A stretch of DNA of 64,000 nt from Methanobacteriota archaeon (lineage in GTDB: Archaea; Thermoplasmatota; Thermoplasmata; SG8-5; JAGLSY01), in assembly GCA_020697715.1 (NCBI GenBank), contig JAEHCO010000001.1, positions 2,222 through 66,221 on the forward strand, read 5' to 3'. This document shows positions 10,240-28,591 of this stretch, one piece after another. Numbering within the stretch: the first letter of the stretch is position 1; the number at the start of each line of letters is the position of its first letter. The notes beneath the pieces were generated by a model. The model did not search any database, was not told the origin of the DNA, and worked only from the letters and a program-made list of their open reading frames with translations. A program made the position numbers and the translations under genes.

Positions 10240-11414
10240 TTGCCACTGCGGACGATATCCTTCACACCCTCTACCAGATCCTTGGACCCGGCCTTGGTCA
10301 GCACATCGATGGCTTTGTGTATGTTCATGACCGCCAGGTCCACCCTGCCGATCTTCATGTATATGCTTGCCAGCTCATACTGGATGACACCAAGATCATA
10401 TACCATCTTCAGACTTTCCATACGCCTTTCAGCCCTGCGGATCCATTCTATTCCCTCTTCAGGGCGATCATTGGCCACCTCTATCAATCCAGTGACGACC
10501 CACATGCAGGCCACTGCGAATTTATCTTCACTACCCTCCAAAATGACCTTGGCATTATCAAGACTGGCCTGTGCCGCGGAGATATCACCCTTGCGAATCT
10601 GGCATTCGGCCAAATTGGTCAAAAGATAGCCCAATTGTCTTTCCTTACCAGAGTCCAGAATGGATATGCCCTCCTGATACGAAATTATGGCATTATCGAA
10701 TTGCTTCATCCTCTTGTATATCTCACCCTGATTGTTCAATGCCCGGGCCAGGTCAGCTGGATTGGCCATATTCCTGTAAGTGGATACAGATAATTTAGCG
10801 GCTTGAAGTGCCTTGTCGAACTCTGCTAGCTCGTACCAGCATGAGCATAGTATACCAGCAGCTCCAGCTGTAAGCATGTTCTCATCATTCTCTAGACCGA
10901 TCTCCAAAACTTTCTCGGCCATCTGGATCGCATCCTTGTTCTTCCCACTTCGCCATAGAACATTAGCCTGGCCAGCCAATGCACGACCATACTGCACCTG
11001 GTTCTTGAAGTTCTGAACCAGTTTTTCAGCCTCCTTGAACCTCTCCATAGCACCATCACGGTTCCCCATTCGATTGAGTGTGAAGCCACTGGTATTCAGC
11101 ATCCTGGCCAGTGTCTCTCTATCATTCAATTTCCGGGCACCGTCTATCACATGGTCCGAGTACATTATATTGTCCACTAGGCGTCCTTCTATCCTTGTGA
11201 TCTCTACTAGAACATCATATATGCTCATCTTATCGCGTAGGTCGGATTCATGTGTTCCAGTCACATCATGGAGAATGGCCTTGCAGATATCCTTGGCCTT
11301 ATCATAATTCTTGGCATCTAGTGCCTGCTTCGCTTTCCCCAGCTCGGTATCGATATCAAACATATTAACAATTAACAATATGATACAAGAATAATAAAAC
11401 TTACGCATGATCAC
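10236..11414 (-). CDS. Tetratricopeptide-repeat protein with N-terminal signal/TM segment
   Basis: 392 aa; multiple 34-aa TPR-like units; 4-nt overlap with downstream dehydrogenase gene. Confidence 0.7.
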   Translation of the reverse strand: MIMRKFYYSCIILLIVNMFDIDTELGKAKQALDAKNYDKAKDICKAILHDVTGTHESDLRDKMSIYDVLVEITRIEGRLVDNIMYSDHVIDGARKLNDRETLARMLNTSGFTLNRMGNRDGAMERFKEAEKLVQNFKNQVQYGRALAGQANVLWRSGKNKDAIQMAEKVLEIGLENDENMLTAGAAGILCSCWYELAEFDKALQAAKLSVSTYRNMANPADLARALNNQGEIYKRMKQFDNAIISYQEGISILDSGKERQLGYLLTNLAECQIRKGDISAAQASLDNAKVILEGSEDKFAVACMWVVTGLIEVANDRPEEGIEWIRRAERRMESLKMVYDLGVIQYELASIYMKIGRVDLAVMNIHKAIDVLTKAGSKDLVEGVKDIVRSGK

Positions 11415-11435
11415 ATATCTGAGTTATTGGTAAGA

Positions 11436-12107
11436 TCACCAAATATACCTGTCCACCGCGCTGGTATCTTCCTCTTCAGTAGTCTGTACCTGAACTTCTT
11501 CGATCTCTTTTTCTTCCTTTTCTATCAAGCCCAGTTGGTATGCCAGACTCTTCACCAATTCCACCGCTTGGTCTTCAGGATACCCAGCCTCCACCATCTT
11601 GGTCTCGACCTCTTCCATGGGCGTGCCTTTGAGTAACTCGGCAGATCCCAAAGTGGCCATCTCCTTGGCAAAACGATTGTCCTCCTCTGTTTCACCAAGC
11701 TCGGCTATCAACCATCGGCCACCAAGTATAGTGGATTCCAATGCCAGATTGAATTCTTTCTTGTCCATATGCTGGGTGTATAGATCTGTCCTGAGGCAAA
11801 GAGTGTCATCCTCATCCATGAGAAAGAACTTGGAAAGACCCATGGCCTTGTTCTTCTTGAGAAGAGAACGGAAAACAGATTCAGCGATCTCCACTGGCTT
11901 GTCCTTTGTATATATGGCCGTTTTGACGGCAATGTAGGTGAGGTCATCATCTACCTGAATGATTATTTTGAAAGGCATCTGCTCAGTATCTATGACCATG
12001 GTACTTCCATCTTCCTCGATCATCCATCCATGGTCTACAGCTTGCTGGCTATCCTTAATGGTCTTCTCAAGCCATTTTCTTATCTTTTCCTGTGGGGAGT
12101 CGAACAT
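11436..12107 (-). CDS. Hypothetical protein with acidic C-terminal tail
   Basis: 223 aa ORF with clean codon usage; no confident family assignment. Confidence 0.4.
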   Translation of the reverse strand: MFDSPQEKIRKWLEKTIKDSQQAVDHGWMIEEDGSTMVIDTEQMPFKIIIQVDDDLTYIAVKTAIYTKDKPVEIAESVFRSLLKKNKAMGLSKFFLMDEDDTLCLRTDLYTQHMDKKEFNLALESTILGGRWLIAELGETEEDNRFAKEMATLGSAELLKGTPMEEVETKMVEAGYPEDQAVELVKSLAYQLGLIEKEEKEIEEVQVQTTEEEDTSAVDRYIW

Positions 12108-12194
12108 AGATGGGGAATCGGAATCATATGATAAAATATTTTCCAGAATAATATATGACCCAGAGCGGTGTTGGTCGCATTCTATTGCTTAGAA

Positions 12195-12824
12195 CTATTC
12201 CTGCCCGTCTTCTTCCTTAACAGCGGGCTTATCAGCCTCTGGAACCTGGCCTTGTGCTTCAGATGGTACAACAGGTGCCTCCCATCCAATGGGCTTTAGC
12301 TCGTCCTCATCATCAGCAGCCTCTTCCAACATCTGGTACCATTTTAAGGTATCAGACCTGAGTACCGCCCTTTCACGTTTGAATATGTGTGAAAGGAGTG
12401 CGTATTCACCTACGACCTTTCCTATAATGGTCGATACAAGAGCAACCGGGAATATTGTTACAATGGCTATCGATATATTCTGAATGACAAATACATAATA
12501 GAGGCCTATAAAGTCTCCAGCTACCCCGAACAATAGGGGTGAGAAAAGGGACAATGATATCAGTGATACTGCGGATATAGTCATTATTATGGAAGCGAAA
12601 ACTGAATGATGTAGCTCATCCATTGTTGTCAGGATGCCCAAAATAAAGCCGCAGAACAGGGGACTTATGAAAAGGATCTCACCACTCAGTGAGAGGCCCG
12701 TGGCGAATTTCAGGAAATTGCCACCAAAGAAAAAGGCCACTATAACTCCAGCGGATATAGACCATATCAGAAGCTTCAGCTTCCTTTTATTATCCATAGC
12801 ACCTGTATTTACATCATCCTGCAT
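12195..12824 (-). CDS. Multi-pass membrane protein with acidic cytoplasmic tail
   Basis: 209 aa; 4-5 hydrophobic helices then Glu/Asp/Pro-rich C-terminus; overlaps upstream gene by 11 nt. Confidence 0.5.
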   Translation of the reverse strand: MQDDVNTGAMDNKRKLKLLIWSISAGVIVAFFFGGNFLKFATGLSLSGEILFISPLFCGFILGILTTMDELHHSVFASIIMTISAVSLISLSLFSPLLFGVAGDFIGLYYVFVIQNISIAIVTIFPVALVSTIIGKVVGEYALLSHIFKRERAVLRSDTLKWYQMLEEAADDEDELKPIGWEAPVVPSEAQGQVPEADKPAVKEEDGQE

Positions 12825-13395
12825 TTACACTCACCTTGTCTCCATAATAGAACATGATAGAATCCTGAAGCCCACTGGAACCCATTATCTTGTAATGAGC
12901 CCTGCCCTGTATCAACACATATCCTGAACCATCTTCTGTGACATCCGTCAACTTTGAATAATATTCATTGTCAGAGTCAAATGTTATCGGTATATTGTAC
13001 ATTTGGCCGGTCCCTGCTTCCAATATATCATTTCCACTTGCGGAAGAGGTTATCATGCCAATATAATCATTGTAATCGGGACGAACTATAGGTTCATCGG
13101 AGATATATATCGAATATTCAATAAGATATATGTCAACGTCCAATCTGCTTTCAATATTAGAGACCGCGATATTTACATTTACGATCGAGTGATTATCTAA
13201 ATACGTAACGGATACTGAATCATCACCGTATGGCACATACGCACCAATATTCATCTGTGTCTCGGTTACTTTAGCATATTCATTGGATATGTAATAGATA
13301 CCATAAGCAGATATGAGAGCAGTAATTATTATACAGATGCCGATGATCTCAATGATCTCGCTTCTTTTTTTTATCTTGCCTGTATCGCTCATCAT
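12814..13395 (-). CDS. Membrane-anchored extracellular protein (single N-terminal TM)
   Basis: 193 aa; N-terminal hydrophobic helix then hydrophilic Tyr/Ser/Asp-rich domain; promoter carries conserved TTGTAC motif. Confidence 0.5.
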   Translation of the reverse strand: MMSDTGKIKKRSEIIEIIGICIIITALISAYGIYYISNEYAKVTETQMNIGAYVPYGDDSVSVTYLDNHSIVNVNIAVSNIESRLDVDIYLIEYSIYISDEPIVRPDYNDYIGMITSSASGNDILEAGTGQMYNIPITFDSDNEYYSKLTDVTEDGSGYVLIQGRAHYKIMGSSGLQDSIMFYYGDKVSVNAG

Positions 13396-13427
13396 ATGGA
13401 GAATGTCAGACTAATATAAAAGCGAAG

Positions 13428-13470
13428 TTGTACGGTTTTTTGTATAATATAAAATCTTTGTGGTACAGGC
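13428..13470 (-). promoter_or_regulatory. Conserved promoter/operator motif, copy a (TTGTACGG-N-TTTTGTATAATAT-N-TTTGTGGTACA)
   Basis: About 45-bp motif shared with 23232-23286 and 24505-24545; 33-75 bp upstream of the 12814-13395 start; contains TATA-like TTATATTA on the gene strand. Confidence 0.45.
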
Positions 13471-13560
13471 TTTTGTATTCCTACCATTTATAATATCCAG
13501 AACATGAAGAGATACCATATTGAAAATTAATAAAAATATAAAATTCGAAAATTAATGGGA

Positions 13561-13587
13561 TCAGCTTCGGCCTACGACCGAAGCTGA
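13561..13587 (-). terminator. Perfect 10-bp-stem hairpin followed by T-rich tract, likely terminator of the opp operon
   Basis: TCAGCTTCGG-CCTACGA-CCGAAGCTGA inverted repeat 17 nt downstream of oppF stop; T-rich run on gene strand. Confidence 0.5.
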
Positions 13588-13603
13588 CATTATGTTTTTC
13601 CTA

Positions 13604-14713
13604 TCAGGCTACCTGACGAGCTTCTGGAGCTTCAGTTGCTGGCTCGGTCTTTTCAGCAGCCTTCACCTGATCCTCAAAGGTTGGGATCTTAGGTTCATCC
13701 GTGCGGAAGTTTATATCTCCTGCAAAGTGGCATTGTATGAAGTGACCGGTCTTGATCTCCTTGGTATCAGGCTTCTTCTCCTTACATATATCCTTTGCAT
13801 AAAGACATCTTGGGTGGAATGAACATCCAGAAGGTATGTTCATAGCTGATGGAAGATCTCCCTTGATCTCCGTCCTGCCACGCTCCATAGCCGGATCTGG
13901 TATCGGAACCGCGGAAAGAAGAGCTCTGGTGTATGGGTGATTAGAGTCGTGTATGATCTCCTCAGCTGGTGCGTATTCCACAATATTTCCCAGATACATA
14001 ACAGCGATATGATCGCTCATGTACCTTGACACGGAAAGATCGTGTGTTACGAACATGAAGGGGATATTGTATCTATCCTTCAGACCTAGCATGAGGTTCA
14101 TAATTCCTGCCCTGATCGATACATCCAGCATGGATACAGGTTCATCAGCCACTATGAACTCCGGCCTTAATGCCAGTGTTCTCGCGATAGCAACCCTCTG
14201 TCTCTGTCCACCACTCAACTCGTGTGGGTATCTTCCCATGTATTCGGAGGATGGTTTCAATTCCGCATACTCAAGTGCCTTTGCGACCATGTCCTCTCTT
14301 TCCTCATAGGATTCTCCAACACCGTGAACGAGCAATGGCTCCACCACTGTGCCGAATACCGTGAACCTTGGATTCAGAGATTCATATGGATCCTGGAAGA
14401 TCATCTGGACCTTTCGCCTGAAATCTTTCAGTTCAGAACCTTTCTTCGCGGCAATGTCCTCACCCTGGAAGAACATGTTACCTGCAGTGGGGTCTTCCAA
14501 TCGCACAAGGAGTCGACCGACCGTGGTCTTACCACAGCCACTCTCTCCAACAAGTCCAAGGATCTTTCCCTTTTTGACCTGGAATGAGATATCATCGACC
14601 GCATGTACGAACATAGATTCCTTACTCATCAATGATGATAGGAAACCTCCGGACATTTCGAAATATTTTCTTAGATTCACCACATCGAATATTACATCAT
14701 CGTCTGCCATCAT
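13604..14713 (-). CDS. Oligopeptide/dipeptide ABC transporter ATP-binding protein (OppF/DppF-like)
   Basis: 369 aa; Walker A GESGCGKTT, ABC signature LSGGQRQR, Walker B, C-terminal Opp-type extension. Confidence 0.9.
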   Translation of the reverse strand: MMADDDVIFDVVNLRKYFEMSGGFLSSLMSKESMFVHAVDDISFQVKKGKILGLVGESGCGKTTVGRLLVRLEDPTAGNMFFQGEDIAAKKGSELKDFRRKVQMIFQDPYESLNPRFTVFGTVVEPLLVHGVGESYEEREDMVAKALEYAELKPSSEYMGRYPHELSGGQRQRVAIARTLALRPEFIVADEPVSMLDVSIRAGIMNLMLGLKDRYNIPFMFVTHDLSVSRYMSDHIAVMYLGNIVEYAPAEEIIHDSNHPYTRALLSAVPIPDPAMERGRTEIKGDLPSAMNIPSGCSFHPRCLYAKDICKEKKPDTKEIKTGHFIQCHFAGDINFRTDEPKIPTFEDQVKAAEKTEPATEAPEARQVA

Positions 14714-15738
14714 CTCACCTCCTTCAATTGGCCATTGAACAGCTCAAGCGCGAAATGACACAAGGAAAAGTGGTTTGGTTCAACCTCGATCGTCTCTGGT
14801 TCCTGGTCCTTACATATTTCCTTTGCATATTTGCATCTTGGATGGAATTTACATCCAGATGGTGGGTTTGCAAGGTCAGGTGGTGAACCAGGGATAGAAT
14901 AGAGTGGTTTCTTCTCACCAATGATACTTGGGAAAGAAGCAAGCAGACCCATAGCGTAAGGGTTCGCCGGTCTCTCAAATACCGCATCTATATCACCGTA
15001 CTCGAAGATCCTTCCAGCATACATGATACCTATCTTCTCAGCCACTTCCGCGACCACAGATATATCATGAGTGATGATGATCATAGCCATGCCCAGTTTC
15101 CTCTGAAGATCTCTGATCTCCGCCAGGACACGATCCTGCATGATCACATCCAATGCAGTCGTTGGTTCATCAGCTATAATGAGCTTCGGGTTGCAGGCAA
15201 GAGCCATAGCGATCATACCCCTCTGTCTCATTCCACCACTGTACTCGTGTGGATATCCATCTATTCTCTCAGAATCAAGCCCAACGAGCTTGAAAAGCTC
15301 AAGAACTCTTTTTCTTGCTTCCTGCTTAGTGATATCATCATGAGCCCTTATGGCTTCCGCTATCTGGTCTCCGACCTTAAATACAGGATTGAAAGCATTC
15401 ATCGCACTCTGGAAGATCATAGCTACTTCATCCCATCTAAAGTCGACCATGGTATTCTCCACGAACTTCTTTCTCTTTCTGGGGGATAGAGCCATTTCCT
15501 CTTCGCTTCCGGCAATGACCGTACCGTCGAAGGTTATCGTACCTTCGACGATGTCACCGTTATCTGGAAGAAGCCTGGTGATCGCATAGGCTGCTGTTGT
15601 CTTACCACATCCAGATTCACCGACAAGGCCAAGGGTCTCCCCTCTGTCCAGCTTTAGTGTTACTTTCTCGACAGCCTTGACTGTTCCTCTTTGAATGCCG
15701 TAATGCACACTTACATTATCTATTTCTAACAGTGCCAT
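14710..15738 (-). CDS. Oligopeptide/dipeptide ABC transporter ATP-binding protein (OppD/DppD-like)
   Basis: 342 aa; Walker A GESGCGKTT, signature YSGGMRQR; 4-nt overlap with oppF-like gene. Confidence 0.9.
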   Translation of the reverse strand: MALLEIDNVSVHYGIQRGTVKAVEKVTLKLDRGETLGLVGESGCGKTTAAYAITRLLPDNGDIVEGTITFDGTVIAGSEEEMALSPRKRKKFVENTMVDFRWDEVAMIFQSAMNAFNPVFKVGDQIAEAIRAHDDITKQEARKRVLELFKLVGLDSERIDGYPHEYSGGMRQRGMIAMALACNPKLIIADEPTTALDVIMQDRVLAEIRDLQRKLGMAMIIITHDISVVAEVAEKIGIMYAGRIFEYGDIDAVFERPANPYAMGLLASFPSIIGEKKPLYSIPGSPPDLANPPSGCKFHPRCKYAKEICKDQEPETIEVEPNHFSLCHFALELFNGQLKEVR

Positions 15739-15743: not shown

Positions 15744-18047
15744 TCACCTCCTCCTCAATCTTGGATTAACGATCTCATCAAACGCCCTTCCAAGAAGGAA
15801 GAAAGACAAACATATCAGAGTGATACATATGCCAGGCGGCAATAGCCACCACCATGCGGTCAATGCATTTGCATGCTGAACGAAGTTCAACATCATTCCC
15901 CAGCTCATAGTACGCGGGTCACCCAATCCAATGAAACTCAATGAAGCTTCAGAAAGGATAGCACCACTGACATAGAAGGTCATGTACAGAACAGCCAATG
16001 GGAGAATGTTCGGAGCTATGTGCCTGAACATGATCCTCGTTTTGCTTGCTCCAGTGACCCTGGCTGAGTCGATGAAAGGCCTTTCCTTCAAAGTAAGGAC
16101 CTCTGATCTTATGACCCTGGCAGTTCCACCCCAACCTACAATACCAATTATGAACACGATATTGAACACACTCGGTTCCATCAGCGCCGCAAGAATAATA
16201 AGCAGCGGAAGGCCAGGAAGTGTCAAGATAACATCAGTGAACCTCATCAATATTATATCGACATTACCACCGTAATAACCTGAGACCAAACCTACGAGCA
16301 TACCTATGCTAATAGAGAATATAGCCGCAGCGAAACCGACCAATAGAGCTATTCTGGAACCCAGAAGAAGCTGGCTGAGAATATCTCTACCCTGAGCATC
16401 TGTGCCTAGTGGGTATTCAATACCACTTGCTGGCTTCTCATCATCTGGTACTGCCCATGTTGGCTTCAATGGAGCGATCATGGTTCCAGTACATCTGTGA
16501 GAATATACCTTTCCAGGCATAGGGTTACCATCTGAATCCAGGTATGAAGTGACAATAACCACTTCTCCCTCACCAATATGCTGAGATGTTTCGAGAGCGA
16601 AATCATCGTATACGATAGGTGAACCAAATGTCACGCCTTGTAAGTTCTTTCTCCATTTGACTATACCAGTCGCATCCAGACCATATATCTGGGTGAAATC
16701 ATCTGTTGGAGTTGCTGTGTCATTGGTATTCTTCACTGCGACAAAGATAAGTCTTGAGTAGACAGAGTCATAATATGGTGCTGCCACACAGGAAGTGTCC
16801 AAAACACCTTTGAGAGTTGTGTCAAAGTCCATCTTCACCATTGACTCAGCAGTGTCCACTCTTGCAGTTGTTGATAATCTATAGATATGGCCAGTATCTG
16901 AACCAACCACAAGCTCATCACCATCGGCTCTAACAGATGGTGAAGTAAGGTTTCCGAGATCAAGTTCTGTAAGTGTTACGTCGATCTTGTATCCACCTTC
17001 CCATCCAGTCAATGGTGTCAGATCAGCTGTCAATACATGAACCCTACCATCATCCGTCGATGCATAGACATTGGTTGCAGCACATACTGGAAATGATGAC
17101 CAATGGTCCCTTCTGTCATTAGCAGCTATCTCACCGGGATTGTCTCCAGGGTAATCATATAATGGATCATATAGATCATATTCACCGATCTTAGTTCCAT
17201 CCGATGTATTGAATGCGTAGATGATACCATCGCTAGATCCAACATAGACCTGTTCACCAGTAGAAGATATCGCTGGTTGAGTCAGTGTTGAATTTGATAC
17301 CTGGATGGTAGCCCTGATAGTGTACGAACCATCTATAATGTATAATGAGCCAGATTCAGTAGATGCGGCAAAGAGATCATCGCTGTTTAGAGTACTAACC
17401 GCATCCTGATAAATATCCACACCGGAAACAGAAGCACCTAGAATGAAAGTCTCTACATCATCACCTGATGGTGGATATTCTGAATCTAATCCATCATGAA
17501 GGAGATACAGGACACCACTCTGTGTTCCAAAGAGCAGTCTGAAATCCATTCCATTCGGGCTCCTCTTGGCTCCGAAGTTCATAGCTTCAACATTGGTCGT
17601 GATCTCAGAGTTGGTCTCAAATGCACCTGACCATCCTCGCCATGCTTTGCTTCCATCAGCTGATGATTTGGCATAAAGACCATAAGGCGATATGACCGAA
17701 TTCATATCGCTAAGAGGCAGACCACCCGCCACATAGAACCTGTCAACTTGCTTGGCATTTGCAGAGGGTATTATCCTCGCAGCCGCACTGTTAGTCACTA
17801 TTCCATTGGTTGTCTGGTCCAAGAAATTCTCAACATTGACCACGTCCTCATCAGGAGCAAACCAGTCTATCGGATGCTTCAATCCCATGAAGGGGGAGGC
17901 AGCTGCGATCAAAATGAAAGCGATCATTATTCCAAGTCCCAGAAGACCTACTTTATTCTCCTTAAAGAGATTCCAGTTATGTGTAAATGAACGTCTTGAG
18001 TCTCTGAACTTTTCTTTTATTTGTTTTGATGTAACCATTTTTCTCAC
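15744..18047 (-). CDS. ABC peptide transporter permease (OppC/DppC-like) with about 450-aa extracytoplasmic insertion after TM1
   Basis: 767 aa; canonical DppC N-terminal TM and C-terminal core (LGTDAQGRDILSQ…); insertion has beta-propeller-like repeats (YVGSSDGIIYAF, VYASTDDGRVHVL). Confidence 0.8.
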   Translation of the reverse strand: MRKMVTSKQIKEKFRDSRRSFTHNWNLFKENKVGLLGLGIMIAFILIAAASPFMGLKHPIDWFAPDEDVVNVENFLDQTTNGIVTNSAAARIIPSANAKQVDRFYVAGGLPLSDMNSVISPYGLYAKSSADGSKAWRGWSGAFETNSEITTNVEAMNFGAKRSPNGMDFRLLFGTQSGVLYLLHDGLDSEYPPSGDDVETFILGASVSGVDIYQDAVSTLNSDDLFAASTESGSLYIIDGSYTIRATIQVSNSTLTQPAISSTGEQVYVGSSDGIIYAFNTSDGTKIGEYDLYDPLYDYPGDNPGEIAANDRRDHWSSFPVCAATNVYASTDDGRVHVLTADLTPLTGWEGGYKIDVTLTELDLGNLTSPSVRADGDELVVGSDTGHIYRLSTTARVDTAESMVKMDFDTTLKGVLDTSCVAAPYYDSVYSRLIFVAVKNTNDTATPTDDFTQIYGLDATGIVKWRKNLQGVTFGSPIVYDDFALETSQHIGEGEVVIVTSYLDSDGNPMPGKVYSHRCTGTMIAPLKPTWAVPDDEKPASGIEYPLGTDAQGRDILSQLLLGSRIALLVGFAAAIFSISIGMLVGLVSGYYGGNVDIILMRFTDVILTLPGLPLLIILAALMEPSVFNIVFIIGIVGWGGTARVIRSEVLTLKERPFIDSARVTGASKTRIMFRHIAPNILPLAVLYMTFYVSGAILSEASLSFIGLGDPRTMSWGMMLNFVQHANALTAWWWLLPPGICITLICLSFFLLGRAFDEIVNPRLRRR

Positions 18048-18051
18048 CTCC

Positions 18052-20025
18052 TCACAATTGAACCCTCGGGTCTAGATATGCATACAATATATCGGCAAAC
18101 ATGTTTCCGAGAACGGTCATCAATGCCATTATGTAGAATGCACCCTGAACGATTGGATAGTTGTGTGTTAAAGTTCCTCTAACGAGGAGCGTTCCCATTC
18201 CAGGCCACGAAAAGATCGTTTCTGTCAACACACCACCACTGATGATACCACCGAGTGAAAGTGCCATCGATGTCACAACAGGCAACATCGCGTTCCTTGC
18301 TGCGTGTCTGTACACGACCTGTCTGGTCTTCAGACCCTTTGCCTTGGCCGTTGTAATGAAATCCTCACCCATGACCTCAAGCATAGAGCTTCGCATCAGA
18401 AGGATAGTGCCTGCAAGACCTAAGACCGTCAAGGTCATCAGTGGTAAGGTCAAATGCCATAACACATCAAGGAAATATTCCATACCTAAAAGTGTCTCAC
18501 CTGTAGCAGAAACACCTCCAAGACCACTTAGAGGGAACCATTCAAGTTGAACAAAGAACACCCATTGAGCTATCAAAGCAGACCAGAAGATCGGCATAGA
18601 ATACAAGAATAGTGTTACCACGATTGTACCTAATTCAATAGCTGTACCTCTTCTCCATGCAACTACGACACCAACTACAATACCTATCATGTAGCTCAAT
18701 ATCAAAGAGCTTCCGAAAAGAAGTAGAGTTGGTGGCACTCTTTCTATGATAACATCCCATACTGGTCTGTTATCTTCGAAGGAATTGCCAAAATCGAACA
18801 GAAGCATTGATTTCATATAGAAAGCGAATTGTTCGAACATTGTCCTGTCCACAATATCAGTAGGATGACTCAGAAAGATCGTTGCTACATGCCCATCTGG
18901 TTGGGTTATAACTCCTTCCAAAGCACCGGCAACTCTGTCCCCATTGCTCTTAGTGGCTGATACATTCACCATTATGGTGGGAATTGATGCCTGATCATAG
19001 ATGAATGGGTATTCGGCTTCTAATCCTTCACCGACCCTGTGCATTGTGAAATCCGACAGGATCGTTGAGTCTGCTGGTAATACAAGACTGGAAGAAGCAG
19101 CATTGACAGGGAAAGATGAAGATATCTCAATTCCATTATCTGTCTCAACCACCATACTGAACATACCATTTATCGCAATAGGATAAGAACCATTGAACCA
19201 GGTTCCATCTTGTGTGAGAGTTAATGGTTGGGATGTGATATTGTCTGGTGATGTCACTCTGATATCAGCGGTTGTCGCACCTTCTATTTGTGTCGAAATT
19301 ATGATATTTTCGCCATTGACAGCCACCTCATTATCGGCCATTGCAGTTCCAAGGTTCCACATTTTGAATGATGGAGTAACTGCCACGATATCATCTGATA
19401 AATCCGTAGTCACTTCGAACGTCATAGCTGCAGTTGCAATATTCTGATAGATGTCCCTTGCCTCAAACACAACTGTGTAATTCCTGTTAGCACCAACAAT
19501 AGACGTGTGATCGATCAATGCCATGTATGCACCAACTACGACCTCATTCATGACGAGATCGGAAGTGGTTTCATACCCAGGGTCCGTGACACTGTACTTA
19601 ACATTCCTTATACCCGCCACATCTTCGGCTTCAAATATCACAGCAATGGTGCTATTATCTAATGCCAGTGCGTCAATATTCCATATTGAAGGCGGGTTAA
19701 GATCAGTAATTGTGGGATCCATATTTACATCAAATGATGTCTGAACAGTATCCCCTTCAGTCTCGACCTCGATAGTATAATGTCCAATCCTCGTTGGGTT
19801 GAAATTATATATGAAATGATTTCCCGGATATTCTACCTCTTTGGCGAAACCATATCTCAAGGCTATTTGATCCTTTTCAATCTCTGTTATTCCTGGCTTC
19901 ATGAAAAGGCCCATTGCCGCATCTCCAGGCATCAGCCTGAACAATACGAACAAAAGCACCAGGACAATCAACAGGGTGACTACCATATGTATGGTTCGTT
20001 TAACCAGATATTTCCTCAATCTCAT
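18052..20025 (-). CDS. ABC peptide transporter permease (OppB/DppB-like) with about 350-aa extracytoplasmic insertion after TM1
   Basis: 657 aa; DppB-type N-terminus and C-terminal permease core; inserted beta-rich Ig-like domain. Confidence 0.8.
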   Translation of the reverse strand: MRLRKYLVKRTIHMVVTLLIVLVLLFVLFRLMPGDAAMGLFMKPGITEIEKDQIALRYGFAKEVEYPGNHFIYNFNPTRIGHYTIEVETEGDTVQTSFDVNMDPTITDLNPPSIWNIDALALDNSTIAVIFEAEDVAGIRNVKYSVTDPGYETTSDLVMNEVVVGAYMALIDHTSIVGANRNYTVVFEARDIYQNIATAAMTFEVTTDLSDDIVAVTPSFKMWNLGTAMADNEVAVNGENIIISTQIEGATTADIRVTSPDNITSQPLTLTQDGTWFNGSYPIAINGMFSMVVETDNGIEISSSFPVNAASSSLVLPADSTILSDFTMHRVGEGLEAEYPFIYDQASIPTIMVNVSATKSNGDRVAGALEGVITQPDGHVATIFLSHPTDIVDRTMFEQFAFYMKSMLLFDFGNSFEDNRPVWDVIIERVPPTLLLFGSSLILSYMIGIVVGVVVAWRRGTAIELGTIVVTLFLYSMPIFWSALIAQWVFFVQLEWFPLSGLGGVSATGETLLGMEYFLDVLWHLTLPLMTLTVLGLAGTILLMRSSMLEVMGEDFITTAKAKGLKTRQVVYRHAARNAMLPVVTSMALSLGGIISGGVLTETIFSWPGMGTLLVRGTLTHNYPIVQGAFYIMALMTVLGNMFADILYAYLDPRVQL

Positions 20026-20101
20026 TTAAACATCTCCGATTCCTTCCTATCTATCTCTCTCGGGACTCCCGAAAAAAAGAAAAGGAAGGGCACTAGCTAA
20101 G

Positions 20102-23089
20102 CTAGGCCCTTATTCTTCTGAACACTGCTGTTGCGACAGCTGTGATCGAGAACAATGAAGCGATCAGCAAGAACGAGGGGAACGGTGTCTCCTGTTCAGT
20201 ACCGGGAGTGACAGTATCCTCATCAACATCTAGTATACCGTCTCCATCATCGTCGTCATCGTCTACGTCTGGGATGCCGTCATTGTCATCATCAGTGTCG
20301 GTGGCATCTGGAATACCGTCGCCGTCAGTATCGATTTCAACGGTGCCAGGGCCAGTGACCTCATCCAGATTAATGACATTTATCGGGATGGACTGTGTTC
20401 CATTCTTGTAGTCCTTCATATTGCCACCATCCGAATACTGACCGAATGCTATCACACTTACTGTGTACTCTTTGTCTGCGTCTATGTCCGCTGCCTGGAA
20501 CGAGAAGGTCGCTTCTCCGTTTGAATCTGTTGTTGCGAACAATGGCGAGACTATGGGACCTTCAGGGTCCACCTGTATCACCACATTCATTCCAGATAAT
20601 GGTTCATAATCATTACCATTCTTGGTCACAGTCGCAGTAACACTTGTCAAACCAGGTGCATCAGCTGCATCCTTATCATCCACCACATCAGGGTTGGCTT
20701 CCAGCTGTACTGCAAGGAAGTCCACACCTTCTGGATATGCGGTCATCAAGGTCAGTTTATTAGGTGCATCGTCGTATCCTTCGATCTCCGCACTCTTGAT
20801 CTCAATAAGAATACCTGAACCGTTCTTGTAAAGATCTGGGTACAATAATTCATCGTTTGGAACATATGGTGCTGTGAAAGTGGTTCTCAATTTCCCAGTT
20901 GAATCTGTTGTTCCATTGTATACGGACAGTGTTCCATTGGTCACTGCGAGTTCGACAAATGCGTTCTTGACTGGCTCTCTTGTAAGAGATCCATCAGCGT
21001 TCTTCGTGATCCCTGTAATAAGTACATCTACATCGGCAGTTGCATTAGATTCGATAGCTGATACTGTGTTAACGAATCTGGCATTCAACCACTTGTTTGA
21101 TGGTGGTCTCAGTTCAAGGATGGATCTCCAGTTGTATATGGAACCTGATGATCCTGTTACCCAGCCTGTGAACCTGTCTGCACGGTAAGCTTCGATATTG
21201 GTCCTGAAGTAGAGAACATCGTATGGCAGATCGTAAGCAATTGCCGCCTGAGCATCCAATATAAGGTTAAGCCTAGCATCTTCATCTCCAGTTTCCCTTG
21301 CATTATCGATTATCTCATCGAAACTGGTATTGGAATATCCTGGGTAATTCTGACCTGCTGCTGCTGTGCTGGAATGGAAGAAAGCATACAAGAAATCTGT
21401 TGGATCGCTACCAATGCTCCATCCAAGAATGTACATGTCAAAGTCCCTTTGATCAATATGGTTGACAATGGTTCCGAAATCCATAGCAATGGACTCTGCA
21501 TATATACCAACATCCTGCATCTGCTTGGCTATCATCAATCCAGCCTGTGCTCTTATCGGATCATAATCTGCAGGTGGTGTATATATCTCTATTTTGCCAC
21601 CATCTGCATTGCCGATGTTCGAGCCATCTGGGTTAAGCCACCAGTTACCATTTCCTGGCTCGGCTCCTGGATTGGTCAATTTATATCCAGCCCTTGAAAG
21701 AATATCTTTGGACTCCTCTGGGTCAAATGCATACCTTGGAATTGTATCATTGTACCATGTACTGATAGATGATACAGGTCCATCTCCAGGTATACCGAAG
21801 TTCTGAAGCAGTCTCTGAACAATGGTCTGCTTATCGATACAGTGAGCTATGGCCTTCCTTAGTGGCATACCTACATCATTACCATTATCGTCGTATCCGA
21901 AGGATCTCTTGTTTGGTCTCATATTGTAAGCCAAGTAGAAGAAACCTTTCTCAGCAGATTGCTTGACACCAAGATCTGGCTCGTTCATTATTTCCTGAAC
22001 GAAGGTTGGTGGAATGGACCATGCAATGTAGTCCACATCATTGTTCTTCAGAGCCAATACGGCCTGTTCTGCTGTCTTGTAGATCTTGAAAACCATTGCC
22101 TCGATGGTGGGTTGTTTTGCAACTTCATTGACATCGTAGGTAGGGTTCCAGCCCTCTTTGTAAAAGTGCTCCCTGTATGTGGTGATCTTTGAGCTAACAC
22201 CGACATTCCATGAGGAGAACTTGAATACTCCACTGCCAACTGGGTTTGGGTTGTCCCAAGCCAAAGCTGCTCCGGAATCCCATGCTTGTGGGCTGTCCTT
22301 GGTGTAGCCTGGATCTGACCAGATGAGCATTCCATCCTGTGGCTGTCCTGATTCTGTGTATCCCCATACGTGGTATGGGATTAAGAAAGCTGATAGTGTG
22401 TTCCTGAAAAAGTCAGCGAAAGGTGTCTGGAGCTCGAACCTCAGTCCGGCCTGCAGTTTATCCGCACTCTCGTAAACCTTCTGGATGTGTAGGTAATTTG
22501 TGTCAGTGTGGTTTGTGCCGGCTTCTCCGCCCTTGTCCATCAAACACTTGACACTGGATACCCAGTCTGGAAGCTGTGACTGAACGTGATATGCGAACAT
22601 AACATCTCTAATGGTCATCTGTGTTCCATCATGCCATGTCACGTCTGTAAAATCGTAGAAGATCGTTGTCTCAGCGAGACCTGTCATTCCAGGATCCCAG
22701 TCTTCCTCTGGTGTGAATCCAAAGATGCCCTGGTTCATGTCGTCCCAGCCCCAGGCGTCATCCGCGCCCTTGCCGGTACCATTGGCAGAGCCAACGGCTA
22801 TGTAAGGGATTATCTCATCCGTGTTTGGATCGGAGTTAAGTGGACCCTCATAGAGATATCCAATAACATTCCATGTCCAGACATCCCCTGCAACTAGGGG
22901 ATTCAGGGTCTTGAGATCATCCTGCATAGCTACTTTCAAAATATATGTGTCATCTTCACTCTGTCTTGTACCCGCATCTGGGGCCGCAACAGCTACTGGG
23001 AAAGCGCTTAATACCATCACAAATACAAATGCTATTGATAAAGCTGCTATCCCCTTGCTCCTAATACTATCATTTTTGACCATTGTCAT
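20102..23089 (-). CDS. ABC transporter substrate-binding protein (family 5, peptide/nickel type) with C-terminal Ca-binding repeat and TM anchor
   Basis: 995 aa; signal peptide, SBP family-5 core, C-terminal DTDGDGIPD…DDDNDGIPD thrombospondin-type-3-like repeats then hydrophobic anchor. Confidence 0.8.
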   Translation of the reverse strand: MTMVKNDSIRSKGIAALSIAFVFVMVLSAFPVAVAAPDAGTRQSEDDTYILKVAMQDDLKTLNPLVAGDVWTWNVIGYLYEGPLNSDPNTDEIIPYIAVGSANGTGKGADDAWGWDDMNQGIFGFTPEEDWDPGMTGLAETTIFYDFTDVTWHDGTQMTIRDVMFAYHVQSQLPDWVSSVKCLMDKGGEAGTNHTDTNYLHIQKVYESADKLQAGLRFELQTPFADFFRNTLSAFLIPYHVWGYTESGQPQDGMLIWSDPGYTKDSPQAWDSGAALAWDNPNPVGSGVFKFSSWNVGVSSKITTYREHFYKEGWNPTYDVNEVAKQPTIEAMVFKIYKTAEQAVLALKNNDVDYIAWSIPPTFVQEIMNEPDLGVKQSAEKGFFYLAYNMRPNKRSFGYDDNGNDVGMPLRKAIAHCIDKQTIVQRLLQNFGIPGDGPVSSISTWYNDTIPRYAFDPEESKDILSRAGYKLTNPGAEPGNGNWWLNPDGSNIGNADGGKIEIYTPPADYDPIRAQAGLMIAKQMQDVGIYAESIAMDFGTIVNHIDQRDFDMYILGWSIGSDPTDFLYAFFHSSTAAAGQNYPGYSNTSFDEIIDNARETGDEDARLNLILDAQAAIAYDLPYDVLYFRTNIEAYRADRFTGWVTGSSGSIYNWRSILELRPPSNKWLNARFVNTVSAIESNATADVDVLITGITKNADGSLTREPVKNAFVELAVTNGTLSVYNGTTDSTGKLRTTFTAPYVPNDELLYPDLYKNGSGILIEIKSAEIEGYDDAPNKLTLMTAYPEGVDFLAVQLEANPDVVDDKDAADAPGLTSVTATVTKNGNDYEPLSGMNVVIQVDPEGPIVSPLFATTDSNGEATFSFQAADIDADKEYTVSVIAFGQYSDGGNMKDYKNGTQSIPINVINLDEVTGPGTVEIDTDGDGIPDATDTDDDNDGIPDVDDDDDDGDGILDVDEDTVTPGTEQETPFPSFLLIASLFSITAVATAVFRRIRA

Positions 23090-23231
23090 TACCTCCTTAT
23101 ATGATATCCAGCAACGTAAATTCTGATGGAATTCAAGTCCGCTGTAAGTGGTGACTATATTTATATTTTATTGGAATTTGTTTTAGTCATCATTAGTTGA
23201 TATAACATCAGTTCATGGTATAAAAGCAAAC

Positions 23232-23343
23232 TTGTACAGATTTTTGTCTAATATAAATGGTTTGTGGTATAAGGCTTTGTACAAAACATTGTTCTAATGA
23301 TCGATCGGAGCGAATATAACGCCAAAAATCGAGACTTGTACAA
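23232..23343 (-). promoter_or_regulatory. opp operon upstream region with conserved motif copy b and three TTGTACA(A/G) palindromic half-sites
   Basis: Motif at 23232-23286 matches copies a and c; TTGTACA at 23232, 23278 and 23336. Confidence 0.5.
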
Positions 23344-23400: not shown

Positions 23401-24468
23401 TCAGGCAAGTTCATCATTTATGAAATAATGTTTCTTAACACCACTTCTCTCGAACCTAAGAATGTCCTTTCTTACAAGTATATTGAGATTGTAACTTATA
23501 GATTGCTGGCTCATTCCCAATCCTAATGCTATCTCAGACTGGGTCATACCTTCTGCCTGCCTCAGACAATCTATTATGCTAAGCTGGAGATCACTCAACC
23601 TAATTCCCTTGTTCTTAGAGTGCTTGACACCCATTGGATAGAAACGTTTGTAGGTTCCATCTCTATGGGATTTGACAAAGCCCTGCATCTCCAATGTTCT
23701 AAGATGATGGGATAAAGTGCCATTTGTGACCTTCAATTCCTGCTTTATCGCATTATAATGGGAACCTGGATGAGATATGATATGTCCATATATCTGACCT
23801 CGAACGAAATGGTCGAGAACCTCTTCCTTCTTAACTCGAGAGTAAAGCGGGATGAAGACCAGTTTGAGCATACCATATTTACCGACCTCGGTAGCTATGG
23901 CCCCTAGGCCAAGTAATAGAAGAGTGCTTGCCCCTATGTACAAGACCTCCTTCTCTATCTGTGTTATAGGAATAGGAACTGGATCATCAACAGCATCATC
24001 TATGGGTTCATCAGGAAGAAAAAGGATCGTGACCTCCATTGAATCAACAGCGGCCTCATACCCATTATAGGTGGCTAGGGCATTCAGAAGTATGGTATTG
24101 TCCTCGGTCACATATCCAACAATTATGAATTGCGATATGCCATCTATATTAGTCACATCTTCTATAGCGGTTATCGTGACATTGTCAGGAAGGGTGGATG
24201 TCAGGTTCACATTAGCTCCCTGCACTGGCCATTCATTTTCCATGACCTTCACGGTGACATATAAAGAATCATTGGAATTCACAACATCCTGATCTATTAA
24301 GAATTCTATATCAAGATAGCCTTCACTAATACTTGTATCAGAAGATGAGAACATATCATCCGCGCTGACGATAGGCATGAGGGAAAGAGCAGTAAGTGAT
24401 AGAGCTAGTACTACCAAAATACCTATGAAATAGCCTTCTCGGCAAGCTCCGCTCTCATTCCTTCTCAT
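23401..24468 (-). CDS. Membrane-anchored transcriptional regulator with two C-terminal winged-HTH domains (ArsR/MarR-like)
   Basis: 355 aa; N-terminal signal/TM, extracellular domain, second TM, then wHTH segments (YNAIKQELKVTNGTLSHHLRTLE; MTQSEIALGLGMSQQSISYNLNILV). Confidence 0.65.
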   Translation of the reverse strand: MRRNESGACREGYFIGILVVLALSLTALSLMPIVSADDMFSSSDTSISEGYLDIEFLIDQDVVNSNDSLYVTVKVMENEWPVQGANVNLTSTLPDNVTITAIEDVTNIDGISQFIIVGYVTEDNTILLNALATYNGYEAAVDSMEVTILFLPDEPIDDAVDDPVPIPITQIEKEVLYIGASTLLLLGLGAIATEVGKYGMLKLVFIPLYSRVKKEEVLDHFVRGQIYGHIISHPGSHYNAIKQELKVTNGTLSHHLRTLEMQGFVKSHRDGTYKRFYPMGVKHSKNKGIRLSDLQLSIIDCLRQAEGMTQSEIALGLGMSQQSISYNLNILVRKDILRFERSGVKKHYFINDELA

Positions 24469-26089: not shown

Positions 26090-28591
26090 TCAGCCCAATC
26101 TATCATACGGATTCTGGGATTCCACATACGAAACAGTACCCTCTTCGGATGGTTTCCCTTCTTCTATTTTTAGGTGACCGCTCTCATCATATTCGTCCTC
26201 ATCTGGCTCAGGCATGTCTGGATCCCTATCATCAGGATGTTGAGACTCAGGCTTTCGTCCAAAACCAAGGCCAGCCAGAACTCCCAGGATACCGGCTATC
26301 GCAGGTGCGATGACCGCCCAAAGAGGGATCTTCTCCTTTTCCACAACCCGAACTTCATCCGTGCCATTGAAGGTCAGAGTAGGCGCATCCAGGAAGTCCG
26401 CCACACCATCACCGTCCGAGTCCGGGGGAAGGGACGTGGCATCAAGAGGATCGGAGCCTGCCAGTATCTCGACGATATCACGCCAGCCATCGCCATCCGA
26501 GTCAGAATCCTCCAATCCATCGGTGAGGTTCAGGGTCTGATTTTGATAAATGACATTGGTATTGTTGCTATACTCGGTCAGATTGGACCAGACCGTGCCA
26601 TTGCTGTACTCGGTCAAGTTCGCCCACTGGGTGCCATTATTGTATTCTGTGAGATTCGCCCACTCTGTGGAGTTGGTGAAGTCTGTGAGATTGTTGTATA
26701 TCTGCTTCTCGATGAAATCTGGATCCATGAAATCCGCCACACCGTCGAGGTCAGCGTCGCCTGGCATGCTGGAATTGTCGGTCGTGTTCGTGCCGGATAT
26801 CACCTCTATTATGTCCAGCCAGCCATCATCGTCATCATCGGTATCTGCGTTATTGCCGATTCCATCGCCATCCGTGTCCAGGCTTTCGAGTGGATCAAAG
26901 GGGAAGATGTCATTGGTGTCCGGAACACCATCATCATCATCATCCAGATCCACAGAATCTGCCAGTCCATCACCGTCAAAGTCAGCAGAGATGGCAAGTG
27001 TGAATTGGGTTGATACCGCATTCCCATTATTGTCTGTGGCTGTCACTTCAACTTCGTAGCTTCCTGCCATATCTGGCCAGCCAGATAGGACCCCGCTGGC
27101 TGAGTCCATCCACAGCCAACTTGCATTGGTATTGATGCTCCATGTATGTGTGTCAGCTCCATCAACATCTGTAAGATCATAATCATTTGAATATAGCTGA
27201 CCAGCTTGGCCAGCGAAGATGTTGGCTGTGTCGATTGTCTGAAGGTCGTTGGTGTTCAGGGCATTGATGATGACATTTGTAGTGAAGGAACGGCCATATC
27301 CGTCTGTCGTGTTGTAAGTGAATCCATCGGTGCCAGTCCAGTTGGCATCAGGCAGGACCGACAGATTATTGCCAGAAAAGGAAACCTGGCAATTTGTTCC
27401 ATTTGAAAAGCCAGTTATCGTGAACTCGTTCTGGTCTGGTGCGTCATTGGCCAGCACGTTGATTATCGTGCTGGTGTCTTCTGTAATATTGAACTCGTCC
27501 CACAATGGGGTGTAGCCCCAGACTATCTTATAGATATTCAGCTCGCTTGGACCATTGTTAATACCTGTGGCAATATACTTATCGTCAGGACTCCATACCG
27601 CACACTGGGTGGTCAAGCCATAGGACACAGTAGAAATCAAAGTTAAGGTTATTCCATCGAAGAAAAAGAGGTAGCACTCTGGATTTCCTCCTGAGACACC
27701 AGCGACAATTAGGTAACGACCGTCAGAGCTCCAGTCTGCTGATAAGAGCGAGTTTGCTGAATTGAAGCTATCGATTATAGTTAGGGTATTACCATTAAAC
27801 ATCAGAACACTACACTCATATCCACCAGCTCCAGTGTCGCCTGAGATAGCCAAGTATTGACCATCAGGCCTCCAATTGACATCCTCTACATGAGCACCGT
27901 GTGAAAATTGAGCGACCATTATCAATGAAGATCCTGTAAAAAAGAGAACACGCACCTCAACAGCTGCATTGGTATCACCGCCCATTGCAAGATAGTTGCC
28001 ATCAGGGGACCAGTGTACGTCATTTACATCAGCACCGTGGTTGTAGCTGTCTAACTGGAAAAGGCTGGTACCATCAAAAATGAGGATCCAGACTAAATTG
28101 TCCACGCCACAGGAGGCAATATAATTGCCGTTTGGGCTCCAAGATACAGATAATACATCTGCCGAAGTAATGAAGCTGTCTATTTGGGTCAACATTGCTC
28201 CATTGAAAGCGAACACTCTAACACTATCATCCATACCACCCACAGCAATGTACTGGCCGTCTGGGCTCCAGTCGACAGCGTAACAGCTGAAGGCAAACGA
28301 ATAGCTGTCTATCTCATAGAGGTTATTGTTTAGTAAACGCAATACCCTAAGATTATCGCTTAGGCTTGCGATGGCCACATATTGGCCATCGGGGCTCCAT
28401 GCAATATCTCTAATCCCGTCATTATCATCATATTGCTCCAACAAGAATTTATCGGCGTATTGGGTCTCGAAAGTGGGACTTACTGCCTCTTGAGGCTGTG
28501 CTCCTTTTACATTGTCCAGCATCATAAACAATGAGCTGAAAACTAACATTAAACTTATCATCAATACGGTAATTTTCCTCATATCCTTCAC
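26090..28591 (-). CDS. Large membrane-anchored surface protein: beta-propeller head, Ig-like domain, Ca-binding TSP3-like repeats, NxT sequon stalk, TM, acidic tail
   Basis: 833 aa; signal peptide; seven WSPDGQY(I/V)A-type repeats; DFDGDGLADSVDLDDDDDG…; 12-aa repeats EWANLTEYNNGT; C-terminal hydrophobic helix and Asp/Glu/Pro tail. Confidence 0.75.
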   Translation of the reverse strand: MKDMRKITVLMISLMLVFSSLFMMLDNVKGAQPQEAVSPTFETQYADKFLLEQYDDNDGIRDIAWSPDGQYVAIASLSDNLRVLRLLNNNLYEIDSYSFAFSCYAVDWSPDGQYIAVGGMDDSVRVFAFNGAMLTQIDSFITSADVLSVSWSPNGNYIASCGVDNLVWILIFDGTSLFQLDSYNHGADVNDVHWSPDGNYLAMGGDTNAAVEVRVLFFTGSSLIMVAQFSHGAHVEDVNWRPDGQYLAISGDTGAGGYECSVLMFNGNTLTIIDSFNSANSLLSADWSSDGRYLIVAGVSGGNPECYLFFFDGITLTLISTVSYGLTTQCAVWSPDDKYIATGINNGPSELNIYKIVWGYTPLWDEFNITEDTSTIINVLANDAPDQNEFTITGFSNGTNCQVSFSGNNLSVLPDANWTGTDGFTYNTTDGYGRSFTTNVIINALNTNDLQTIDTANIFAGQAGQLYSNDYDLTDVDGADTHTWSINTNASWLWMDSASGVLSGWPDMAGSYEVEVTATDNNGNAVSTQFTLAISADFDGDGLADSVDLDDDDDGVPDTNDIFPFDPLESLDTDGDGIGNNADTDDDDDGWLDIIEVISGTNTTDNSSMPGDADLDGVADFMDPDFIEKQIYNNLTDFTNSTEWANLTEYNNGTQWANLTEYSNGTVWSNLTEYSNNTNVIYQNQTLNLTDGLEDSDSDGDGWRDIVEILAGSDPLDATSLPPDSDGDGVADFLDAPTLTFNGTDEVRVVEKEKIPLWAVIAPAIAGILGVLAGLGFGRKPESQHPDDRDPDMPEPDEDEYDESGHLKIEEGKPSEEGTVSYVESQNPYDRLG

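Follow-up and report, generated by a model that had tools for sequence, protein, structure and literature searches.

We analyzed a stretch of 64,000 nucleotides (nt) from a Methanobacteriota archaeon (GTDB lineage Thermoplasmatota; Thermoplasmata; SG8-5; JAGLSY01), which corresponds to positions 2,222 to 66,221 on the forward strand of contig JAEHCO010000001.1 in assembly GCA_020697715.1 and contains the genes for an ATP-binding cassette (ABC) importer of the Opp type with large extra domains in both of its permeases and in its substrate-binding protein (SBP). The whole stretch is here called the window, and all coordinates are positions within it. An initial annotation dealt with the interval 15744 to 23089, in which we found 3 co-directional genes on the minus strand, for the SBP, an OppB-like permease, and an OppC-like permease, directly followed by 2 ATPase genes of the OppD and OppF types. 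The genes for OppB, OppC, OppD, and OppF were tightly packed, with a GGAGGTG Shine-Dalgarno site before each of them. Judged by gene order, the unit is made up of 8 genes, which encode, in turn, a membrane-bound regulator with winged helix-turn-helix (wHTH) domains, the SBP, OppB, OppC, OppD, OppF, and 2 small membrane proteins, here called sA and sB. The importer genes had been recognized in the initial annotation, whereas those for the regulator, sA, and sB had been overlooked.

By every sequence and fold criterion tested, the importer belongs to the Opp/Dpp (PepT, TC 3.A.1.5) family of type I importers, as had been proposed from the outset. It combines a family-5 SBP and 2 ATPases with oligo_HPY tails with 2 permeases, one of the OppB type and one of the OppC type, both of which contain the BPD_transp_1 domain, 6 transmembrane (TM) helices and EAA loops. 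The tails of both ATPases contained a CX5CX6CX16C motif (residues 296 to 327 in OppD and 297 to 328 in OppF), which we take to resemble the [4Fe-4S] site reported for mycobacterial OppD. The NCBIfam equivalog scores of the proteins in the system were all below the cut-offs, and the importer is therefore not orthologous to any named system. The proteins stand in the databases under generic names. A search of the rest of the window for a second Opp system or for paralogous inserts gave no hits.

Inserted domains of the permeases and the binding protein

In OppB, the BPD_transp_1 domain was located at residues 448 to 655 in the Pfam and NCBIfam searches, and the match to BPD_transp_1_N (residues 5 to 38) covered only the first TM helix. 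Hydropathy placed this helix (TM1) at residues 14 to 32 and the next TM segment at residue 437. In an alignment to Escherichia coli DppB, residues 6 to 58 corresponded to DppB residues 4 to 56, and residues 392 to 656 to DppB residues 58 to 336, which identified the extra segment, previously estimated at about 350 amino acids, as a clean insertion of 333 amino acids. The insertion point lies directly before the P1 loop's conserved α-helical hairpin, in which Y403, M407, and G413 were invariant across 42 long OppB proteins, and E398, Q399, F400, L408, F412, S415, and P421 nearly so. In Mycobacterium tuberculosis DppABCD, the P1 hairpin of DppB has been described as a "scoop loop" that enters the SBP for substrate release (PMC10954201). 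The AlphaFold2 model of OppB, which was computed from a family alignment, had a mean predicted local distance difference test (pLDDT) value of 81, and when the insert was divided into 33 blocks of 10 residues, 27 of them had values of 85 to 94.

The gene for OppC was listed with a GTG start codon at position 18047. The Shine-Dalgarno site GGAGGTG includes this codon, and P0001, an identical protein in the database, consists of 764 amino acids; the true start is almost certainly the ATG at position 18038. The BPD_transp_1 domain of OppC was located at residues 582 to 766, and the OppC_N match (residues 25 to 54) again covered only the first TM helix. TM1 was placed at residues 33 to 51 and the next TM segment at residue 566. 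Residues 540 to 765 aligned to DppC residues 74 to 299, leaving about 465 extra residues after TM1, close to the previous estimate of 450. The propeller-like repeats reported in this segment were borne out by a PQQ_2 match of 31.3 bits (Pfam cut-off 27.6) and by sequence matches to the archaeal PQQ-repeat protein 3hxj and to the Cake designs. The mean pLDDT of the OppC model was 83, with values mostly between 85 and 97 in the insert and local dips to about 57 to 67, and the inserts were the best-predicted parts of both OppB and OppC. In Foldseek searches, the modeled insert matched Cake8 (TM-score of 0.82 on the target), BamB, and YxaL with a probability of 1.0, the top matches being to BamB within the BAM complex. 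Among the 50 Foldseek matches listed there was no dehydrogenase, and those at the top were to the non-catalytic scaffolds BamB, YxaL, and Cake. The strand pattern of the model fits about 8 blades, and the propeller is probably eight-bladed. The predicted eight-bladed PQQ-like fold of the insert is shared with BamB (3q7m), YxaL (7dxn), 3hxj, and Cake8 (6tjg), but the sequence identities were only 12% to 18%. Furthermore, BamB is a separate lipoprotein that serves a membrane machine as a protein-protein scaffold, whereas the OppC propeller sits inside a loop of the transporter itself.

Free-standing, TM-anchored paralogs of the OppC propeller were also identified (P0008 to P0011, P0135, P0137, P0138, and positions 1372 to 3477 of L012). 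These were 45% to 48% identical to the insert in the window, as compared to 25% to 35% for the inserts of distant fused OppC proteins. Some of them contained DxDGDG Asp repeats after the TM segment, and one gene adjoins another surface propeller gene (Beta_propel). The identity values suggest that the propeller module has moved recently between the free-standing and the embedded states. The fused propellers contained loops that are missing from the free-standing paralogs, such as residues 294 to 315 with the conserved motif AAN.RRD.WSS, and these loops are candidates for transporter-specific contacts. It was also noted that some OppC-like permeases of 1,050 to 1,100 amino acids contained a second propeller nested within the PQQ propeller, which was of the Kelch type in P0145, P0164, and L011 (positions 7531 to 10764) and GH32N/GH130-like in P0208.

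In both permeases, the positively charged N-terminus should be located inside the cell, with the inserts following after TM1. The inserts were acidic with a low content of Lys and Arg, and N-glycosylation sequons occurred at a frequency of 0.6 to 2.1 per 100 amino acids in the ectodomain segments (0.8 to 1.5 in the permease inserts) versus 0 to 0.6 in the membrane and cytoplasmic segments. We therefore place the inserts outside the cell. Together with the folds obtained with AlphaFold2, these features bear out the extra extracytoplasmic domains of the initial annotation as genuine, folded parts of the proteins. The identity to the nearest relative was 94% to 99% for the permease cores versus 65% for the inserts, a contrast that fits a conserved machine with exposed, fast-evolving modules. 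An SBP fold was rejected for the permease inserts, which have β-sandwich and propeller folds next to an SBP encoded by a gene of its own. Membership in the type VII ABC systems (MacB/FtsX) was likewise rejected, given the BPD_transp_1 domain with its 6 TM helices and the presence of an SBP.

The SBP matched SBP_bac_5 over residues 149 to 575 (Pfam, E = 2.8e-48, 165 bits versus a cut-off of 32.4), and its closest solved relatives were AppA, DppA, and another family-5 SBP. It is about 460 amino acids longer than DppA, compared to the 400 first estimated, and about 345 amino acids of the excess correspond to a C-terminal extension at residues 651 to 995. Orthologous SBPs in 7 loci were 910 to 977 amino acids long. 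In the precomputed Pfam results for these orthologs, Big_1 was present in L007/8 and L011 (faint) and in L009 (weak), and Invasin_D3 was weak and confined to L009.

The proposed membrane tether of the SBP was confirmed, and a TM segment followed by a basic tail was found at the C-terminus in all 8 SBPs compared. Such C-terminal TM anchors are already known from archaeal binding proteins of the Opp class. The Asp repeats, which the initial annotation had read as calcium-binding, were present as 3 exact motifs in the window and absent from all 7 homologous SBPs compared (L001, L002, L004, L005, L007, L009, and L011). They are, according to this comparison, an insertion specific to this genome and not a general feature of the system. 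The Pfam family TSP_3 was not reported on the SBP at E ≤ 0.01, and the motifs make the repeats putative calcium-binding sites. A PFP(S/A) motif was located just before the TM anchor (positions 20177 to 20191, residues about 967 to 971) and was present in 6 of the 8 SBPs compared. In its three parts, the PFP motif, the TM segment, and the basic tail, this terminus is similar to the sorting signals of the archaeosortase type. None of the other surface proteins in the window ended in this manner, and we therefore make no claim of an archaeosortase.

The T-rich stretch that had been reported after the SBP gene was found downstream of the stop codon. It was kept in L001 and L002, which are the closest relatives, and was weaker in L004; in L005 a GC hairpin took its place, and L007 lacked it. 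It cannot be regarded as a general feature of the system. Termination at oligo-T tracts is established in archaea, and partial termination after the SBP gene is plausible.

The known transporters most similar to the system are the PepT-family type I importers DppBCDF and OppBCDF from E. coli and DppABCD and OppABCD from M. tuberculosis (PDB 8z1v, 8z21, 8wd9, and 8j5q). The system in the window has the set of subunits, the folds, the oligo_HPY tails, the Cys motifs, and the P1 hairpin of the B subunit in common with these transporters. It differs from them in that the canonical P1 loops, of about 60 amino acids in the B subunit and about 25 in the C subunit, are extended by 333 and about 465 amino acids, respectively, in the excess length and TM anchor of the SBP, and in that the unit also includes a membrane-bound regulator and 2 small membrane proteins.

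The permeases of type I ABC importers, which rank among the best understood of all membrane machines, usually have hardly any extracytoplasmic part, the textbook exception being the P2 loop of MalF in E. coli MalFGK2-E, an Ig-like (immunoglobulin-like) extracytoplasmic domain that embraces the binding protein. This loop is the nearest functional analogy for a docking cradle, although no homology is claimed: the MalF domain consists of about 180 amino acids in the loop between TM3 and TM4 of one subunit in another importer family, whereas the domains described here are found in both subunits, are 2 to 3 times larger, and include a propeller. Extracytoplasmic domains covalently joined to the importer permease are also known from OpuA and GlnPQ in organisms without a periplasm, but the domains fused there are the binding proteins themselves. 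The type VII ABC systems (MacB, LolCDE, FtsEX) contain a large extracytoplasmic domain between TM1 and TM2. The tests of membership described above make the likeness to OpuA/GlnPQ and to the type VII systems superficial.

Conservation of the unit in Thermoplasmatota

The genomes nearest to the window were those of uncultured Thermoplasmata and Thermoplasmatota, available as metagenome-assembled genomes (MAGs). The 3 long genes were also identified in L001, L002, and L004 and in the far more distant Thermoplasmatota contigs L005/6, L007/8, L009, and L011, and the same gene lengths recurred in at least 9 other assemblies. The order of all 8 genes, from the regulator to sB, was common to 5 divergent loci (L001, L005/6, L007/8, L009, and L011). 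A database search with OppB recovered at least 143 clusters of long OppB proteins; all of the 120 clusters listed had lengths of 456 to 685 amino acids, and those among them that were named by organism all came from Thermoplasmata, Thermoplasmatota, Proteinoplasmatales, or "Euryarchaeota" MAGs. A search of 1.8 billion representatives with a profile of the propeller insert recovered about a dozen clusters at 50% identity of permeases with a fused OppC propeller, as well as longer variants with nested propellers and free-standing forms of the kinds described above.

In the sampled Thermoplasmatota MAGs, permeases of this length are the rule for the orthologous system. The architecture is therefore a conserved family trait and not a peculiarity of this genome, and by these counts the system appears to be widespread in uncultured Thermoplasmatota. 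The initial annotation had held that equally long permeases throughout the lineage would speak against its reading; for the orthologous system they are effectively the norm, which takes away the uniqueness but leaves the biological interest. It had also raised mis-joined open reading frames as a concern. The reading frames are intact, and an origin of the long permeases by assembly or frameshift fusion with neighboring surface-protein genes is vanishingly improbable, since the same uninterrupted architecture and lengths recur in independent NCBI, JGI, ENA, and Logan assemblies and the inserts lie inside the permeases, between TM1 and TM2, with canonical sequence on either side. Given the equal lengths in independent assemblies, open frames of 657 to 995 codons are not a product of chance either.

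In L010, a long OppB (638 amino acids), a long OppC (746 amino acids), and 2 ATPases were encoded at positions 8001 to 14259 with no SBP, regulator, sA, or sB gene adjacent to them, and the small open reading frames beside these permeases were not homologous to sA or sB.

The gene for the regulator was located upstream of the SBP gene in the window, and a homolog was found directly upstream of the SBP gene in L001, L005/6, L007/8, L009, and L011. Its cytoplasmic part contained 2 winged-helix domains, HTH_HVO_0163_N and MarR/HTH_20 (Pfam). The SBP gene and the sA gene were each preceded by a copy of a candidate promoter/operator module, the 20-nt core of which occurred exactly twice in the 64 kb, versus 0.01 occurrences expected. 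About 65 nt of the module could be aligned between the 2 upstream regions and both of their equivalents in L001 (positions 4780 to 4885 and 14364 to 14469), each of which also contained the core. Two TATA-like boxes lay in the module together with repeats of a GTAC(C)A(C)AA box, and additional TTGTACAA palindromes were located at positions 23277 to 23284 and 23336 to 23343. A scan of the long leader and the intergenic regions against Rfam identified no riboswitch or known RNA at E ≤ 0.1.

No Pfam family was identified for sA or sB. A homolog of sA follows OppF in L001, L005, L007, L009, and L011. A profile built from 6 sA sequences, including the one in the window, scored each of them at E ≤ 4e-61, a value that is circular by construction; in phmmer searches with the single sequence, the E-values were 2.6e-84 (L001), 6.2e-17 (L005), 4e-12 (L009), and 1.7e-07 (L011), and L007 gave no match. 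Homologs of sB (P0284, P0288, and P0296) were identified on contigs of sizes 256996, 16726, and 29600, which are the same as those of contigs with members of the cassette, and they probably lie on these cassette-bearing contigs. In the distant loci, sA and sB followed only 8 to 21 nt after OppF; in the window and in L001, a candidate hairpin terminator and the second promoter module separate OppF from sA and sB. BLASTP comparisons among the SBP stalk, the OppB insert, the OppC insert, the ectodomain of the regulator, and sA gave no significant matches. The gene just 3' of sB (positions 11436 to 12107, minus strand) encodes a CesT/Tir-chaperone-like protein of 223 amino acids, which was 95.5% identical in L001, as compared to 70% to 76% for sA and sB. 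The coordinates of the features are collected in Table 1.

Table 1. Coordinates of the genes, domains, and candidate regulatory elements of the importer unit.
Feature	Positions	Strand	Length or residues	Description
Membrane-bound regulator	23401-24468	-	355 aa	Signal peptide or TM 15-33, acidic Big_1-like ectodomain, TM 175-193
Promoter/operator module, SBP copy	23195-23300	-		Candidate; core motif TGTACAAGTTTGCTTTTATA at 23219-23238
SBP gene	20102-23089	-	995 aa	Enlarged family-5 (cluster C) core at ~45-650 between signal peptide and Ig-like stalk; TM anchor at C-terminus
Big_1-like Ig domain in SBP stalk	20489-20689	-	Residues 801-867	Pfam, E = 6.8e-8, 32.9 bits, just below cut-off 34.9
Asp repeats in SBP	20219-20332	-	Residues 920-957	3 thrombospondin-type-3-like repeats, exact matches to the regular expression DxDxDGxxDxx[DE]
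C-terminal TM anchor of SBP	20120-20176	-	Residues 972-990	Followed by basic tail RRIRA
Oligo-T tract TTCCTTTTCTTTTTTT	20072-20087	-		17-32 nt past SBP stop codon; candidate partial terminator
OppB/DppB-like permease	18052-20025	-	657 aa	
OppB P1-loop insertion	18853-19851	-	Residues 59-391, 333 aa	About 4 tandem β-sandwich (Ig/FN3/CBM-like) domains, predicted
OppC/DppC-like permease	15744-18038	-	764 aa from ATG 18038	767 aa as listed, with GTG 18047 as start
OppC P1-loop insertion	16443-17876	-	Residues 58-535 (767-aa numbering)	Probably eight-bladed PQQ/BamB-like β-propeller
OppD-like ATPase	14710-15738	-	342 aa	ABC_tran and C-terminal oligo_HPY (Pfam); 97% identical in L001
OppF-like ATPase	13604-14713	-	369 aa	ABC_tran and oligo_HPY (Pfam); 93% identical in L001
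Hairpin after OppF stop codon	13561-13587	.	10 bp, GC-rich	T-rich sequence next on minus strand; candidate terminator
Promoter/operator module, second copy	13391-13496	-		Candidate; directly upstream of sA; core motif 13415-13434
sA	12814-13395	-	193 aa	N-terminal TM 14-32, β-rich ectodomain of ~160 aa, single-pass
sB	12195-12824	-	209 aa	Polytopic with ~5 TM segments; C-terminal tail acidic; 11-nt overlap with sA

Roles proposed for the ectodomains

The transport core is complete, canonical, and strongly constrained in sequence, and the system is most likely a working binding-protein-dependent importer. We favor, with moderate confidence, a reading in which this functional Opp/Dpp importer uses its ectodomains as a scaffold that would hold the tethered SBP over the translocator, with all of these parts encoded in one conserved unit of 8 genes. 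In a cell that has only one membrane and lacks a closed periplasm, the β-sandwich chain of OppB and the propeller of OppC, probably together with sA and sB, would form a scaffold or cradle around the docking site, which would keep the stalked, tethered SBP in position over the translocator. Transport would then be performed by normal docking of the SBP, release of the substrate by the scoop loop, and ATP-driven alternating access. The Ig-like ectodomain of the regulator may read the state of the surface assembly, or the ligand, and the duplicated operator module would let the regulator co-regulate both transcription units. While the scaffold role is one that we infer, a cradle of this kind is supported by the top Foldseek match of the OppC insert, since the BamB-type propeller is a known protein-protein scaffold.

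Several observations weigh against the cradle. The predicted TM-scores of the models (pTM), 0.57 for OppB and 0.70 for OppC, leave the geometry between the domains open, and the contact between the ectodomains and the SBP is likewise one that we infer. The OppB insert varies from about 200 to 350 amino acids across the lineages, with identities down to 14% to 30%, and OppC has gained nested Kelch or GH-like propellers; such variation is no more in keeping with a fixed cradle than with surfaces that are adaptive or face a ligand. Furthermore, the long permeases in L010 were found without an adjacent SBP, regulator, sA, or sB. The nature of the substrate is a related point. By analogy, peptides are the default substrate for the Opp/Dpp family, and the nearest solved relatives of the SBP are peptide binders, but in other organisms the ligands of this class of SBPs also include sugars, metals, and opines. 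The α-amino group of the ligand is bound by an Asp, D408 in DppA and D419 in OppA. DppA D408 aligned opposite a gap in the conserved family motif of the SBP, LGW(S/R)IGSDPTDF, in a locally uncertain part of the alignment, and a specificity for peptides is therefore not supported.

Alternatively, the ectodomains might bind polymeric or particulate substrates, or recruit or contain hydrolases, and the degradation products would be made beside the SBP. Such a capture-and-process machine would be an archaeal, single-membrane analog of a utilisome and would extend the surface substrate-capture complex conjectured in the initial annotation. The modular nesting of extra propellers, one of which is GH-like, and the CBM-like (carbohydrate-binding module) matches would be expected from it, but there was no hydrolase in or near the cassettes, and we consider it unlikely. 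A bolder and decidedly doubtful version is that the unit represents a new class of archaeal surface uptake machines, in which a type I importer would serve as the base of a modular extracellular platform made up of the OppB Ig chain, the OppC propeller, the stalked SBP, sA, and sB. The lineages would plug in Kelch or GH32/GH130-like propellers to capture or process polymers, the transmembrane regulator would read the platform, and the whole would be a single-membrane counterpart of the SusCD-type utilisomes.

It is also conceivable, if distinctly unlikely, that the modules and the SBP stalk anchor the transporter to an S-layer or glycocalyx, or hold it at a distance from one, without taking part directly in the transport cycle. 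Archaeal envelope proteins typically have such an acidic composition with sequons, many large surface proteins with Ig and propeller domains are encoded in the window, and the propeller also occurs as a free-standing TM-anchored surface protein, in one case next to another surface propeller gene. A role as a spacer or anchor leaves unexplained, however, why both permeases of this transporter only have kept their modules across deep divergence, why the insertion lies beside the P1 hairpin that contacts the SBP, and why translational coupling links sA and sB to the ATPase genes.

Finally, the assembly might mainly signal ligand or occupancy to the wHTH regulator through contacts between ectodomains, with transport being secondary. 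A regulator with an Ig-like ectodomain was conserved beside the cassette in 5 lineages, and the operator-like module was duplicated before both transcription units in 2 species. However, the ATPases and TM cores were 93% to 99% conserved and the EAA loops and the scoop hairpin were intact, which argues for real transport. Moreover, a regulator gene adjacent to a transporter is common in ordinary substrate-induced operons, and L010 lacked the regulator. A system that is primarily a sensor is highly improbable.

Unlike the nearly bare permeases of other type I importers, both permeases of this system contain folded ectodomains of 330 to 470 amino acids in precisely the loop that engages the binding protein. 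Such a conserved system would be a natural experiment in keeping binding proteins at work on the cell surface without a periplasm. The benthic Thermoplasmata of the MBG-D/Thermoprofundales group are regarded as recyclers of the detrital protein of sediments, and in metagenomic surveys of this group such genes are scored only as "dipeptide/oligopeptide/nickel ABC transporter". In the literature searched, which left out most subscription journals, there was no description of the architecture, only generic mentions of "dipeptide/oligopeptide ABC transporters" in these organisms. If the ectodomains help to capture the substrate, the unit could have a central role, so far overlooked, in the nutrition of these archaea. 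By-products of the analysis are 2 new families of small membrane proteins, a wHTH regulator that spans the membrane and has a candidate operator, and a propeller module with free-standing and transporter-embedded forms, between which it appears to have moved.

Other features of the window

The nucleotide composition of the window was even, and genes for SMC, Topo VI, and ArgRS were located nearby. No tRNA genes were identified in the window, and an association of the locus with tRNAs or mobile elements was ruled out given their absence, the uniform composition, and the chromosomal appearance of the region.

Two other groups of large genes were noted. The first, at positions 26090 to 35610 on the minus strand, encodes 3 very large secreted proteins with near-identical signal peptides: a WD40 propeller protein of 833 amino acids with Big_9/He_PIG domains and 2 GLUG-motif/He_PIG proteins of 1,236 and 1,064 amino acids, the latter 2 with C-terminal TM anchors and acidic tails. 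The second consists of 2 convergent giant genes with 3' ends that overlap by 17 nt, one of which (positions 55592 to 59152, plus strand) encodes a protein of 1,186 amino acids with double zinc ribbon and TPR domains and the other (positions 59136 to 63953, minus strand) a protein of 1,605 amino acids with a double zinc ribbon and DUF11/DUF7619 repeats.

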